Sequence record: NC_054908.1
Source: Escherichia phage vB_EcoM_DalCa
DNA length: 64,000 bases
Strand: one strand, 5' to 3'
The notes under the pieces are model-generated. The model was not told the DNA's origin and did not search any database. It saw only the letters and a list, made by a program, of their open reading frames with translations. A program made the position numbers and the translations under genes. Shown here one piece after another: positions 34,227 through 42,436 of this stretch; positions within the stretch are counted from its first letter, which is position 1; every line of letters begins with the position of its first letter.

Positions 34227-35405
34227 TTAAAAGTATTTTTTAAAACTCATCATAACTTTATCATCAACATCATTATCAATCTGTGCAACAAGATAAGATG
34301 ACAGTTCTACTTCTTGCGGCGCGGATTGAACATTATCAGAATTAAGGTATTCACGAATCCAAGGATATGGATGTTTAACCGGAGCATCGGTAATCGGGCA
34401 TGGAAGACCACACTGTTTCATACGAGATACAGTTAAGTAATCAATAAAGCTCCACATGCTATTTGTATTTAATCCAGGAACATCGCCATCTTTAAATAAA
34501 TGAACTGCCCAATCTTTTTCTTGGCGGTTAACTTCCATGAAAATATCAACTGCTTCTTGTTCACACTCTTGAGCAATTTTAACCCATTGATCGCCATCAG
34601 TACCAGATTGAAGTTGACGAATAATATATTGTGTACCTTTAAGATGAAGCTGCTCATCACGTGCAATGAACTTCATAATCTTGGCATTACCTTCCATGAT
34701 TTCCATGTTTTTATGGAAGTTAAAGGTACACGCAAAGGATACATAAAAACGAATAGCTTCCAGAGCATTGATAACGTGCAGACAGAGATAAAGCGACTTC
34801 ATCAGGTCTCGTTTACATTCTTCCAAATGAGTGAGACTGTTTGAATATGCTTCTAAATCATATTCATTTTCAGCAAAATAACTAAAGTTTTCTTTGGCGT
34901 TTTCCCAAATACGTGTCTTGTCCAGAACATCATCATAATAACGACCAATAGATTCAGCACGTTTCATGATAGCTTTATCTAATACAATCTCATCAAATAC
35001 CTTTGACGGATCAGTATAAAGATTTCGCATAATATGAGTGTATGAACGACTGTGAATAGTTTCACTAAAAGTCCATGTAGCAACCCATGTATCAAGGCTT
35101 GGGTCTGAAATCAATGACATAAGTACAGCAGACGGTGCACGACCCTGAATGCTATCCAGAAGTGATTGATACTTCAGATTATTAGTAAAAATATTCTGCT
35201 GATATTGAGGAAGCTTATTAAACTGTGCAGCATCCATCATTAAGTTTACTTCTTCAGGACGCCAGAAAAATGACAACTGCTTTTCGGTTAAATCTTCAAA
35301 AACTTTATGACGTTGAATATCATAACGCGCAATACCAAGACCTGAACCAAAAAACATAGGTTCTTTTAAAACATCAACTGGATTTGTATTAAAAACTGTG
35401 CTCAT
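34227..35405 (-). CDS. nrdB: ribonucleotide reductase small subunit NrdB, uninterrupted
   Basis: 392-aa continuous ORF. Confidence 0.92.
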   Translation of the reverse strand: MSTVFNTNPVDVLKEPMFFGSGLGIARYDIQRHKVFEDLTEKQLSFFWRPEEVNLMMDAAQFNKLPQYQQNIFTNNLKYQSLLDSIQGRAPSAVLMSLISDPSLDTWVATWTFSETIHSRSYTHIMRNLYTDPSKVFDEIVLDKAIMKRAESIGRYYDDVLDKTRIWENAKENFSYFAENEYDLEAYSNSLTHLEECKRDLMKSLYLCLHVINALEAIRFYVSFACTFNFHKNMEIMEGNAKIMKFIARDEQLHLKGTQYIIRQLQSGTDGDQWVKIAQECEQEAVDIFMEVNRQEKDWAVHLFKDGDVPGLNTNSMWSFIDYLTVSRMKQCGLPCPITDAPVKHPYPWIREYLNSDNVQSAPQEVELSSYLVAQIDNDVDDKVMMSFKKYF

Positions 35406-35456
35406 AAATTTTCCGCTTAGTTAATAGTTGGTGACTCGTCCGTGAGTCAAATTATA

Positions 35457-37721
35457 TCATAATTTACAGGATGAACAATCTTCAGCTTTTGGAGTTTCTA
35501 TTTCATAATCATCAGTACCAGAACCGTCACGGGTATTATGATAATAGAAATTTTTTCCGCCAAAATACCAGAAATACAAAAGGTCATCAATCATTATTGA
35601 CATTGGAACCTTGCCTTTAGGGAAGATTTGGGGGTCATAGTATGTATTCGCCGAAGCTGATTGACAAACCCATTTCAGCATAATAGCTACCTGCGTAAGA
35701 TAAGGTTTATTACCTTTCTTAGCTAATTTCCATGTATAATCATAAAGGTCTATGTTATGCTCAATATTGGGCACGACTTGATTAAAGGAGCCCTCTTTTG
35801 ATTCTTTAACAGAGACTGGTCCACGTGGAGGCTCGATACCGTTTGTACTGTTAGAAACTTGGGAAGATGACTCACATGGCATAAGTGCTGATAGTGTGCT
35901 ATTACGGATGCCAAAGAGCTTAAGGTCTTCCCGCAGCGACGACCAGTCACAAACGTATTTTGGAGCTGCGATTTGGTCAATCTTTTTATTGTACCAGTCG
36001 ATAGGTAATTCGCCTCGAGACCAACGAGTGTCTGAATAATATTCACAAGGTCCTTTTTCTTTGGCGAGTTTAATGGATGCTTTAATAAGTCCATACTGTA
36101 ATCTCTCAAATAGTTCATGTGTTAAATCGTTAGCATCTTCATAAGAAGCAAAGTTACTTGCCAACCAAGCTGCATAGTTAGTAACACCTACACCGAGGTT
36201 ACGACGCTTTTTAGCTTTTTCTGCTTCAGGAACTGGATATCCTTGGTAATCCAAAAGATTATCAAGAGCACGAACCTGGACTTCTGCCAATTCATTAATT
36301 TTATCTTGGTCTTGCCAGTCAAAATTATCCAGTACGAATGCAGAGAGAGTACACAATCCAATTTCAGCATCAGGACTATTCACATCATTTGTTGGAATAG
36401 CAATTTCACAGCACAAGTTACTCTGACGAATAGGTGCCTTTTCACGAATAAACGGAGTATAGTTATTCGTATTATCAATGAACTGTACATAAATCCTTGC
36501 TGTTCCTGAACGTTCAGTCATGAGCAATTCAAATAGTTCACGGGCTTTAATACGCTTTTTACGAATATTAGGGTCTTTTTCTGCTGCTTCGTATAATTCA
36601 CGGAAACGGTCTTGGTCTTTAAAATAAGAATAATACAGCTCTCCACCCATTTCATGTGGACTGAACAAAGTAATGTAATCGTTCTTTCCGAATCGTTCCA
36701 TCATCAAATCATTCAGTTGAACACCATAATCCATATGACGAATGCGGTTTTCTTCTACGCCTTTGTTATTTTTCAAAACGAGAAGATTTTCAACTTCCAA
36801 ATGCCAAATAGGATAATAAGCAGTAGCAGCGCCGCCACGAATTCCGCCCTGTGAGCATGATTTAACAGCAGTCTGAAAATGTTTCCAAAAAGGAATAACA
36901 CCAGTATGACGCACTTCACCCATGCCAATCTTAGAACCTTCGGCACGAATCATACCAACGTTAATACCAATTCCAGCACGTTTGGAGATATATTCAACAA
37001 TTGAAGCAGAAGCCTTATTAATAGACTTTAATGAATCACCTGCCTCAATAACAACGCATGAACTAAACTGCCGAGTTGGAGTACGGCAACCAGCCATAAT
37101 AGGAGTTGGTAATGAAATCTGTCGAGTAGATACTGCTTCATAAAAACGAATAACATGTTTTAATCTATCAACAGGTTCATCTTGATGCAATGCCATTCCA
37201 ATAGTCATAAATGCAAACTGAGGAGTTTCATAAATTTGACCAGTGGTTTTATCTTTAACTAGATATTTTTCTTTTAATTGCATCGCCCCGGAATAAGTAA
37301 ATTCCATATCCCGTTCGTGCTTAATTTTTGATTCTAAAAATGTAATTTCTTCTGCTGAATATTTTGACAACAATTCAGGGTCATATTTACCTTCATTTAC
37401 ACAGTAAGAAATATGGTCAATAAATGAACGTGGTTCATACTGCCCATAAACATGCTTACGAAGAGCGAACATTAGACAACGTGCAGCTACATATTGATAA
37501 TCAGGCTCTTCAACCGAAATAGAATTCGCAGCGGCCTTAATGACAATAGTCTGAATATCATCAGTTGTCATTCCATCACGGAGATAAGATTTAATATTTT
37601 CATATAATTCATAAGGATCTACTGATGTTCCCTCAGCTGCCCAAGATAAAACTTTAATAATTTTTTGTGGGTCAAAGCTCTGAGAAACACCACTACTTTT
37701 GATAACATTAATTAATTGCAT
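35457..37721 (-). CDS. nrdA: ribonucleotide reductase large subunit NrdA
   Basis: 754-aa ORF; active-site NLCCEI; recognised as T4 NrdA. Confidence 0.95.
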   Translation of the reverse strand: MQLINVIKSSGVSQSFDPQKIIKVLSWAAEGTSVDPYELYENIKSYLRDGMTTDDIQTIVIKAAANSISVEEPDYQYVAARCLMFALRKHVYGQYEPRSFIDHISYCVNEGKYDPELLSKYSAEEITFLESKIKHERDMEFTYSGAMQLKEKYLVKDKTTGQIYETPQFAFMTIGMALHQDEPVDRLKHVIRFYEAVSTRQISLPTPIMAGCRTPTRQFSSCVVIEAGDSLKSINKASASIVEYISKRAGIGINVGMIRAEGSKIGMGEVRHTGVIPFWKHFQTAVKSCSQGGIRGGAATAYYPIWHLEVENLLVLKNNKGVEENRIRHMDYGVQLNDLMMERFGKNDYITLFSPHEMGGELYYSYFKDQDRFRELYEAAEKDPNIRKKRIKARELFELLMTERSGTARIYVQFIDNTNNYTPFIREKAPIRQSNLCCEIAIPTNDVNSPDAEIGLCTLSAFVLDNFDWQDQDKINELAEVQVRALDNLLDYQGYPVPEAEKAKKRRNLGVGVTNYAAWLASNFASYEDANDLTHELFERLQYGLIKASIKLAKEKGPCEYYSDTRWSRGELPIDWYNKKIDQIAAPKYVCDWSSLREDLKLFGIRNSTLSALMPCESSSQVSNSTNGIEPPRGPVSVKESKEGSFNQVVPNIEHNIDLYDYTWKLAKKGNKPYLTQVAIMLKWVCQSASANTYYDPQIFPKGKVPMSIMIDDLLYFWYFGGKNFYYHNTRDGSGTDDYEIETPKAEDCSSCKL

Positions 37722-38038: not shown

Positions 38039-38255
38039 ATTGTTTTTCCGTTAAAACAGTAATATCGTAGTAACAGTCAGAAGAAGTTTTAACTGTGGAA
38101 ATTTTATTATCAAAATACTCACGAGTCATTTTATGAGTATAATATTTTTTGCCATAAATGATAATAGGCTGATTTGGTCCTGGAACTTCTAGCTCACTTG
38201 GATTAGGAAGTGTAAAAAGAACAACGTCAGAAGTATCTTTAAATCGTAAAATCAT
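37992..38255 (-). CDS. hypothetical protein (nrdA.2 position)
   Basis: 87-aa ORF. Confidence 0.6.
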
Positions 38256-39112
38256 ATTGCCATTTTCCCTTTAATTGCTGGATGCGATTCATAATTTTCA
38301 AGGATAAAATCTTTCGGTTTCATGTATTCAGTTAACCAGTAAAGCTGTGTTTCGGTGTCACAATTTCCAAACTCTATAGGCCAATCAATTTTAAGTTCAC
38401 ATAGTTCTTTAGGCTCACGACGTAAAATTTCTTTACATTGCTCAGTATGATTCATATAGATGTGAGTATTACCACCAGAAAATATCAAATCTCCTGGGAT
38501 AAGATTACACATCTTAGCCACAATATGCGTCAAGGCAGCGTACGAGGCAATGTTGAATGGCAATCCCAAGAAAACATCTACACTTCTTTGGTACCATTGT
38601 AAATCAAGATAACCATTACGCACATTAAACTGATAGAACATATGACAGGGCGGTAATGCCATTTGATTGATTTCAGCTGGATTCCATGCTGAAACGATTT
38701 GACGTCGATCAGTTGGTAATTTTTTAATACGATCAATAGTTTCAACTAATTGATCCACACCGCCGAAATCACGCCATTGTTTACCGTATATAGGACCAAG
38801 TTCACCACTATGATATCCTAGGTCTTTAGCCTGGTTTTCATAGTTATCGTCCCAAATAGTTTTACCTTGAATAAGACTACCATGTGTGCGAAGACGTAAA
38901 TCATTAACATTGGTAGAACCGGAAATAAACCATAGAAGCTCAGCAATGCATGCATTCCACGCAAGCTTCTTAGTTGTTACCGCAGGAAAACCTTTAGTTA
39001 AATCCCAACGTAATTTAGTACCGAACAAAGCAATTGTTCCTGTGCCTGTTCGGTCATCGGTTTCATAGCCATTTTCAAAAATGTCTTTAATTAAATCTTG
39101 GTATTGTTTCAT
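38252..39112 (-). CDS. td: thymidylate synthase, uninterrupted
   Basis: 286-aa continuous ORF; active-site region ALPPCH. Confidence 0.93.
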
Positions 39113-39157
39113 TTAGTACCTTATATAAATTATAATACATTTTATGAAGCTAAATAA

Positions 39158-39505
39158 TCAATACGGTTTAGCATCAAATTTTCTCTCAATTTCAGGCGTG
39201 AAATATAATTCTTTACCGCGTTTGGAAAAGCGACCAATAATATGATAATTATTCTCATCAAACGTGATATTACCAATATCCATAGCTTTCAACCAAATAT
39301 CGATATTTCTATCCAGCTTTATGTCAAAATTCCAATACGGTGAACTATTACCGAAAATACTGCAAGCGGATTCAGTGAAACAACTGCTATAAATCTTGTC
39401 TTTAGGAACTACTAATTGATAGACACCTTTAATAAACTGAGGACCCTGCCACTTTGGCTGTTTCGTGTCTTTTTCTAATAGAATAGGGTAATAATTAAAA
39501 TTCAT
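39158..39505 (-). CDS. hypothetical protein inserted between frd and td
   Basis: 115-aa ORF, no recognised motif. Confidence 0.6.
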   Translation of the reverse strand: MNFNYYPILLEKDTKQPKWQGPQFIKGVYQLVVPKDKIYSSCFTESACSIFGNSSPYWNFDIKLDRNIDIWLKAMDIGNITFDENNYHIIGRFSKRGKELYFTPEIERKFDAKPY

Positions 39506-39524
39506 ATTTCCGCCACGTGTTATT

Positions 39525-40354
<830 letters not shown>

Positions 40355-41527: not shown

Positions 41528-42436
41528 TTAAAGGTCATTCAAAAGGTCATCTAGGTCCGTGTCATCAGCACTAGATGAACTGCCAGAGCTTGAGCTCATA
41601 AAATCATCTTCAGTTTTTGTATTGAAGTCATCAACATTGAATGCATCCAAATCATCAGCAACTTTATCAGCTTTCTTAGCAGCAGTTGCAGCAGCACCGC
41701 CCATCACAGCAGTTCCCATAACTTGACCGAATTTAGTGCTCAGTTCTTCAAACGATTTGAATTTATCTTTAGAAGTCATTTCAGAAAGGTCAACCATTTG
41801 TTCGAACAGTTCTTTCTGGAAAGATTCATCGTCAATGTTTGGAATCGCAGATTGATTCAGGAATTTAGATTCGTCGTAGTTACTAAATCCAGAAACCTGT
41901 TTAACTTTCAGTACAAAGTTAGCACCTTCCCACGGACAAGTTACATCAACCGGAGTTTCACCCATTTCAACATCAACTGCAATCATTGCGTTGATTTTAT
42001 CCCAGATTTTCTTACCGAAACGGTATTTAAATACTTTACCTTCATTTTCTGGAGCAGCTGGGTCTTTTACTACAAGAATGTTAGCCCAGTAAGAAGTTTT
42101 ACGTTTAACAAGACCGTACTCTTTATTGTCAGTGTTATACAAATCATTTTTACTGATGTACTGACATACTGGACAAGAATCGTAATCACCGTGGGTAGAT
42201 GAACAGTTTTCAATATACCATTTACCATTTTTCTTGAAACCGTGATTTACAAGAATTGCGAATGGTGCTTGTTCATCATTTTTAGACGGAAGAAAACGAA
42301 TTACTGCTTGACCGTTACCCGCATTGTCGAGTTTCAGTTTCCACTCGCCTTTATCTTCAGAAGAAAAACCACCTTTATTTCCAGCCAGTTTAGCCATTTG
42401 TGCAGCGAGTTCAGCAGTAGATTTACGTTTAAACAT
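41528..42436 (-). CDS. 32: gp32 single-stranded DNA-binding protein
   Basis: 302-aa ORF recognised as T4 gp32, including acidic Ser/Asp-rich C-terminus. Confidence 0.95.

Follow-up and report, generated by a model that had tools for sequence, protein, structure and literature searches.

The 115-aa open reading frame (ORF) between the dihydrofolate reductase (frd) and thymidylate synthase (td) genes of Escherichia phage vB_EcoM_DalCa (NC_054908.1) is td.1, a genuine, strongly constrained and native gene. It is an already catalogued, uncharacterised T-even gene and not new cargo, and the frd-td junction of Tequatrovirus in which it lies is a polymorphic slot with three alleles: td.1, a different ORF of 68 aa, or nothing. 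On balance, we regard it as somewhat probable that td.1 is a vertically inherited T-even accessory gene and not a recent insertion, expressed early with frd, whose product is a non-enzymatic beta-barrel binder. All positions given below refer to the 64,000-nucleotide stretch of this genome that was analysed (the window).

Genomic context of the frd-td junction

The window derives from a Tequatrovirus. A 2-kb region of it is 99.1% identical to phages WilhelmHis (BASEL Bas35) and UTI-E2, and at least 80% of this region is covered in 355 phage records. The gene order on the minus strand is gp32 (41528-42436), homologues of frd.3, frd.2 and frd.1, an 81-aa ORF (40109-40354), frd, the 115-aa ORF, td, nrdA.2, nrdA.1, and nrdA. 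Upstream of td.1, frd encodes a 194-aa dihydrofolate reductase (39525..40109, minus strand; Pfam DHFR_1, E = 7e-19), and downstream of it td encodes a 286-aa thymidylate synthase (38252..39112, minus strand; Pfam Thymidylat_synt, positions 1-266 of 266, E = 7e-96). The td.1 gene itself, defined by the ORF call and by its match to phrog_1928, runs from ATG to TGA across 39158..39505 on the minus strand and is separated from the frd stop by 19 nt and from the start of td by 45 nt.

In phage T4 (NC_000866), no gene separates frd from td, which share 4 bp (ATGA), so that the window carries 416 bp (39113-39528) more than T4 at this point; the frd genes of the two phages are 89% identical at the nucleotide level. 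The td ORF of the window is contiguous, whereas T4 td aligns to it as two blocks split by the T4 intron, and an Rfam search across the 64-kb window identified no group I intron or other RNA family. A sequence-only reading of this DNA had held that frd runs directly into td in T4, that a 115-aa ORF on the same strand fills a gap of about 400 bp here, and that td is free of its intron. Each of these points was borne out, and the junction thus departs from that of T4 in the two ways proposed, by the extra ORF and by the missing td intron. Single-piece matches to td are numerous, and an intron-free td is thus common among the relatives of this phage.

The nrdB gene (392 aa) is also without an intron and follows nrdA after a gap of 51 nt, with no mobE (34227-37721, minus strand). 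Together with the intron-free td and the lack of any Rfam hit in 64 kb, this shows that the mobile elements which T4 carries here are missing from the region. At the position of the T4 td intron (about 38524-38608, minus strand), the window departs from T4 at 25 of 85 nt. Across the 24 codons around the intron site, 19 of 72 nt differ, all of them synonymously, leaving the same 24 residues; two amino-acid changes relative to T4 lie further downstream of these codons. Some of the changed bases fall within the regions that I-TevI cleaves and binds. The 81-aa ORF (minus strand; phrog_3183, E = 2e-43) sits between frd.1 and frd, where T4 has a 71-nt gap, and overlaps the frd start codon by a single base. 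WilhelmHis, Shfl2, AR1, slur08 and JQD51 have this ORF; T4, SF and 236Ecol005PP lack it.

td.1 is a catalogued and constrained gene

The protein encoded in the window has the same length as td.1 of phage T6 (AY262134.2, ABI48938.1) and is 99.1% identical to it in amino acid sequence. The T6 gene is flanked by frd upstream and td downstream, as in the window, and nothing material differs between the two copies of td.1; T6 has an intron in the downstream td, and the window does not. Several other phages have annotated hypothetical proteins that are 100% identical to the window protein, and hundreds of Tequatrovirus copies reach 99% to 100% identity. Residues 4-111 of 115 match phrog_1928 (PHROG 1928, function unknown; E = 1e-35), and an HMM built from 23 members of the family matches the ORF at E = 6e-43. 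In agreement with the earlier statement that the ORF has no recognisable motif, sequence searches of td.1 against Pfam, NCBIfam, PADLOC and the PDB returned no match. Our literature search found no paper that mentions td.1, and comparative reviews of T4 are silent on the gene.

Comparison with six Tequatrovirus and Mosigvirus relatives revealed 5-31 synonymous and 1-11 nonsynonymous differences in td.1 (14 and 1, respectively, relative to Shfl2). Across these six relatives, dN/dS is 0.014-0.055 for td.1, compared with 0.12-0.17 for frd and 0.06-0.11 for td. While it had been considered that the ORF might lack coding bias, its codon adaptation is 0.63 in frame and 0.43-0.48 out of frame, close in frame to that of its neighbours (0.65-0.66), and its GC content (0.33; window, 0.36) matches the neighbouring genes. 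The lack of a known domain and a weak Shine-Dalgarno sequence are features that an ORF arising by chance between two genes would also have. However, the occurrence of homologues in 579 records, the large excess of synonymous over nonsynonymous changes, the in-frame codon bias, and a confident fold prediction from co-varying homologues all argue against such an origin, which is refuted by the conservation pattern and to which we assign a negligible probability.

Annotation errors were encountered in the public records PV204681.1, OR125554.1 and MZ501113.1. The product names of JQD51 are off by one gene, which leaves td.1 labelled as dihydrofolate reductase, and the record of phage BW-1 names it a 'putative glucose-1-phosphate adenylyltransferase'.

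Distribution of td.1 and alleles of the junction

A tblastn search identified the td.1 protein in the 579 phage records mentioned above, which split into 361 at 90% identity or more (Tequatrovirus and a few Mosigviruses) and 218 below 60%. A nucleotide comparison gives 361 records that match td.1, 323 of them with at least 95% identity. Since a Tequatrovirus-level frd or frd/td junction is present in roughly 506-529 records, about two thirds of the Tequatroviruses carry td.1, T2 and T6 included. The framing of the gene as an unusual insertion or as cargo of this genome is thus not supported.

The T4 junction was also used as a query, and the 30 Tequatrovirus-level rows of an evenly spread sample were compared. 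The td.1 cassette, which lengthens the span by about 416 or about 386 bp, is present in 20 of these (T2, HY01, PP01 and WilhelmHis among them), a cassette of 206 bp in seven, and a direct junction in three (T4, G2133 and vB_EcoM_112). The 206-bp cassette consists of the 68-aa ORF (phrog_9550, E = 3e-44), which has ATGA overlaps with both frd and td. An example is found in phage vB_EcoM-G3G6 (L020:800-1006), where it takes the slot equivalent to 39113-39528 of the window. Rows at 72% to 81% identity, which represent the closest sister groups sampled and include IME08 and VR7, mostly have the direct junction. The synteny comparison that the sequence-only reading had suggested therefore distinguishes three alleles and places T4, not the window, in the minority. 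Whether the ORF would be present in T4 and most T-even phages had also been raised; it is absent from the former and present in most of the latter.

Beyond Tequatrovirus, homologues of td.1 directly follow frd in MY742 (Enterobacter), Mineola and Biddle (Klebsiella), Cronus (Erwinia), STML-198 (Salmonella), CHI14 (Serratia), and two metagenomic T4-like contigs. Given this distribution and the presence of td.1 in most Tequatroviruses, T4 is the outlier at the frd-td junction. The homologues in other T4-like phages are 26% to 47% identical to td.1 and often overlap the frd stop codon; two homologues are 63% to 66% identical in td.1 and 46% to 50% in frd. A profile search of 1.84 billion representative proteins returned 22 clusters, 20 of which are true family members, all of 95-116 aa; the other two (P0021 and P0023) were rejected as spurious matches to repetitive proteins. 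The PHROG 1928 family is apparently small and restricted to T4-like phages. One distant phrog_1928 member lies away from frd and td on a metagenomic T4-like contig (L019:1248-1577), between genes for a zinc-ribbon/TM2 protein and an RlaP-family protein, and genes of the RegB and valyl-tRNA-synthetase-modifier families are located nearby.

A tandem paralogue in distant T4-like phages

In most of the distant T4-like lineages, a second gene (type B; 113-144 aa) adjoins the td.1 homologue (type A), either before or after it. Alignment to the td.1 profile with hhalign gave probabilities of 90% to 99% for type B and of less than 1% for unrelated neighbours. Type B matches phrog_1928 at E = 4e-16 to 3e-39, and a Foldseek search with the td.1 model recovers the paralogue of Cronus. 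Examples are Cronus gp170, Biddle CDS0094, a 124-aa ORF of CHI14 and a 119-aa ORF of MY742, and the type B loci are L006:2059-2493, L008:2748-3143, L017:4323-4697, L004:2817-3176, L007:2809-3156, and L010:4332-4673. The C-terminal GRFxKxG hairpin and the HG(I/F)Y strand are common to both types, as is the frd-td slot. Following the QKxW motif, type B alone has about 19 additional residues (WALVxDGxxPTIxxYKRNP); this insert is absent from the window and from the Tequatrovirus loci examined, and a profile search identified no second family copy in the window. The 68-aa ORF, orf81 and nrdA.2 were also considered as family members and rejected (hhalign probability below 1%).

The family is thus represented at the frd-td junction by zero, one or two copies across genera. 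In MY742, Biddle and contig L010, frd is followed by type A, type B, the 68-aa ORF and finally td, and this shared order suggests that the Tequatrovirus alleles are differing subsets of an older array.

Junction sequences and expression signals

The spacer between frd and td.1 (39506..39524, minus strand) consists of 19 nt, which in gene orientation read ATAACACGTGGCGGAAAT after the frd TGA. It contains a weak Shine-Dalgarno-like GGCGGA 3-4 nt upstream of the td.1 ATG. The same 19-nt spacer is kept in other Tequatroviruses, and since it is too short to accommodate a separate promoter, td.1 appears to be co-transcribed with frd.

The 45-nt spacer between td.1 and td (39113..39157, minus strand) contains a promoter-like element, recognised both in the sequence and in a consensus scan. 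By sequence, it comprises TTAGCTTCA (39153-39145), 10 nt, and TATAAT (39134-39129), all on the minus strand; the consensus scan reports a sigma-70-like TTGATT-18-TATTAT, after which an AAGG serves as the ribosome-binding site of td. The 30-nt element with TTAGCTTCA and TATAAT is present in every Tequatrovirus copy of td.1 examined and is missing in the short-spacer phages SF and JQD51. TTAGCTTCA resembles the T4 MotA box, TGCTTtA, and together with the -10 element it would presumably form a putative middle promoter.

The end of frd reads ATGAAATAA and is similar to the opening codons of td, ATGAAACAA, and the spacer after frd starts with ATGAAATAACAC, which resembles the start of td, ATGAAACAATAC. 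A 9-bp direct repeat, TAAATGAAA, is found at the frd end (left copy, 39523..39531, minus strand) and at the td start (right copy, 39107..39115, minus strand). The copies are 416 bp apart in the window, and T4 has exactly one, at the frd/td overlap.

Loss, gain, and exchange

The T4 state could have been reached by deletion of the 416-bp cassette between the two copies of TAAATGAAA. The likeness of ATGAAATAACAC to ATGAAACAATAC could stem from a target duplication upon insertion into a T4-like junction, and the mostly direct junctions of the sister groups at 72% to 81% identity also count against our preferred reading. Considering the family-wide association with the frd-td slot, we favour loss in T4 over gain as the probable direction of the change within Tequatrovirus.

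The Mosigvirus SF (L011) is 89% identical to the window in td.1, 81% in td, and 67% in frd at the nucleotide level. JQD51 (L012) combines a Tequatrovirus-type frd (93%) and 81-aa ORF (96%) with td.1 (88%) and td (83%) of the SF type. These mosaics suggest that recombination breakpoints lie at the gene junctions, and the contrast between td.1 and frd in SF suggests some lateral movement of the cassette between genera, so that exchange of td.1 with SF-type Mosigviruses appears likely. Within Tequatrovirus, the nucleotide identity of td.1 is 95% to 99%, which is not above the background of nrdA.1 and frd.1, and across genera its divergence tracks that of the flanking genes. The excess of nucleotide conservation of td.1 over its neighbours is not special, since frd and td are themselves unusually divergent. 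A recent sweep or a mobile cassette within the genus was considered and rejected, as nrdA.1, nrdA.2 and frd.1 are equally conserved and the synonymous divergence of td.1 within Tequatrovirus is similar to that of frd.

Conserved residues and predicted structure of the protein

Within the 23-member alignment, Q16, W19, G27, G91, K95 and G97 are invariant and L9, Y29, N79, F93 and F102 nearly so, and the family motifs are (K)QxKW, HG(I/V)Y, GN and IGRFxKxG. None of the invariant positions is D, E, H, C or S, and this lack of an invariant acidic, His, Cys or Ser residue argues against an enzyme. Most members are mildly basic (pI 6.8-9.4, mostly 7.7-9.4), and 17% of residues are aromatic.

An AlphaFold2 model built with four sequences was poor (pLDDT 59.5), and the prediction was repeated with 23 sequences, which gave a small beta-barrel with one helix (pLDDT 92.0, pTM 0.84). 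In this model, strands at residues 6-12, 27-34, 38-40, 48-50 and 62-64 are followed by a helix at 68-76 and by strands at 80-82, 86-96 and 99-104, and the order of elements is strand-strand-strand-helix-strand-strand. The structure prediction that had been called for has thus produced a confident beta-barrel, and it has no significant match among solved structures: Foldseek against the PDB returned no hit below E = 0.48, with TM scores of at most 0.37. Weak structural hits, obtained with two methods, are mostly to OB-fold proteins (HIN, Teb1, Cdc13, S1, SSB, RPA, RMI and RuvA domain I). Among predicted viral structures, the significant hits are solely to uncharacterised proteins of T4-like phages, the Cronus paralogue included. 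Like the OB-fold domains of SSB, RPA, S1, HIN and Teb1, the td.1 model is a small barrel with three strands, a helix and more strands, and the mildly basic, aromatic-rich composition adds to the likeness to OB-fold nucleic-acid-binding domains, although the structural hits are weak. Together with the lack of a PDB match, these weak hits suggest that the predicted fold is new or else represents an OB-like barrel that has diverged very far.

Possible roles of td.1

The gene is located in the early-transcribed block for nucleotide metabolism, where it would most likely be co-transcribed with frd, and the overlap of its start with the frd stop in other genera suggests translational coupling. As no catalytic residues are conserved, Td.1 most likely binds rather than catalyses, and we consider it fairly probable that it acts by non-enzymatic binding. 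A role in nucleic-acid binding through the predicted OB-like barrel is only tentatively proposed. More specifically, the protein may be a single-stranded nucleic-acid binder, or it may be a protein-binding adaptor for a conserved partner. The very low dN/dS suggests that such a partner is itself conserved, as would be the case for a phage protein, a nucleic acid or a conserved host machine, and is not a rapidly evolving defence protein. The gene is dispensable, given that T4 and about a tenth of the sampled Tequatroviruses are without it.

A different function is implied by the GenBank records MZ501113 and MZ501066 (BASEL), which label td.1 a 'putative homing endonuclease'. The BASEL paper describes comparative annotation, with domain evidence for the label absent, and the label seems to derive from comparative annotation of presence and absence. 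Apart from the label, a homing endonuclease or other self-mobile element would be consistent with the presence/absence polymorphism between conserved genes, with the SF td.1 being far closer to the window than SF frd, and with the 9-bp direct repeat that flanks the cassette. The gene also resembles those of the Seg and Mob homing endonucleases, which are likewise small, located between conserved genes, and present or absent among T-even phages. However, searches of Pfam, NCBIfam and the PDB with the 23 members identified no GIY-YIG, HNH, LAGLIDADG, PD-(D/E)XK or other nuclease domain, the invariant positions include no acidic residue, His or Cys, and with its 115 aa the protein is half as large as the Seg and Mob enzymes (for comparison, the genes of I-TevI and T6 MobE have 738 and 642 nt). 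The predicted fold also differs from theirs, being OB-like at best, the distribution is old, with homologues that co-diverge with their flanks in many genera, and the identity of 95% to 99% among Tequatroviruses is no higher than that of nrdA.1 and frd.1. A self-mobile element is thus very improbable, and the GenBank label, which is unsupported by a nuclease domain or by conserved catalytic residues, should not be propagated.

Two further roles would tie td.1 to the host or to its neighbours. A role of td.1 in host takeover or anti-defence, in which the protein binds and neutralises a host factor and the gene is kept where the factor is met but lost where it is not, for example in T4, is unlikely in our assessment. 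A small, early and dispensable gene that is present or absent within a genus, that varies between zero and two copies across genera through tandem paralogues, and that shares a polymorphic slot with an alternative 68-aa ORF is consistent with such a role, as is a fold that matches no solved structure, which is common for such proteins. The very strong purifying selection (dN/dS of 0.01-0.06, tighter than for frd) and the conservation of 97% to 100% of the protein over hundreds of Tequatroviruses are unlike an arms race, however, and a mildly basic protein would not be a DNA mimic. No solved structure of an anti-defence protein is matched, td.1 bears no likeness in sequence or structure to a characterised anti-defence inhibitor, and the literature search found no link between td.1 and defence. 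The suggestion that insertions of this kind mark accessory or anti-defence sites consequently holds for the first part, in that the junction is polymorphic and accommodates small accessory genes, while the native composition, the low dN/dS and the lack of an anti-defence link speak against the second. Somewhat less likely still is a role in the thymidylate cycle, with Td.1 as an accessory subunit or a regulator. In that case the protein would bind to dihydrofolate reductase or thymidylate synthase, or to the mRNA of these enzymes; it might, for instance, be an adaptor within the dNTP-synthesising complex or a translational coupler. In eight or more diverged lineages of T4-like phages, td.1 is located between frd and td; this placement, the frequent overlap of start and stop codons with both neighbours, and the strong constraint, which fits a conserved phage-encoded partner, point in this direction. 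Yet both enzymes are functional without td.1 in T4, in the rows at 72% to 81% identity and in Tequatroviruses with the 68-aa allele; gene order is generally conserved among T4-like phages, which makes position weak evidence, and one homologue is encoded elsewhere. A vertically inherited accessory gene for a non-enzymatic beta-barrel binder therefore remains the reading that we prefer.

Implications for T-even phages

It is also conceivable, if unlikely, that PHROG 1928 and type B together constitute a structurally new beta-barrel family, restricted to T4-like phages, with a specific role. The family may counter a host function that acts on the thymidylate or nucleotide supply of the phage, or it may represent a new kind of small protein that binds nucleic acids early in infection. 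If this were true, the loss in T4 would explain why td.1 has never been studied.

The comparison of junctions corrects a T4-centred view of this region, as the window shows the common state of frd and td and T4 is the exception. td.1 is one of many conserved T-even genes that have been missed because T4 lacks them. With a constraint tighter than that on dihydrofolate reductase, a confidently predicted fold unmatched among solved structures, and zero, one or two copies across genera, it is a reasonable, though not pressing, subject of study.
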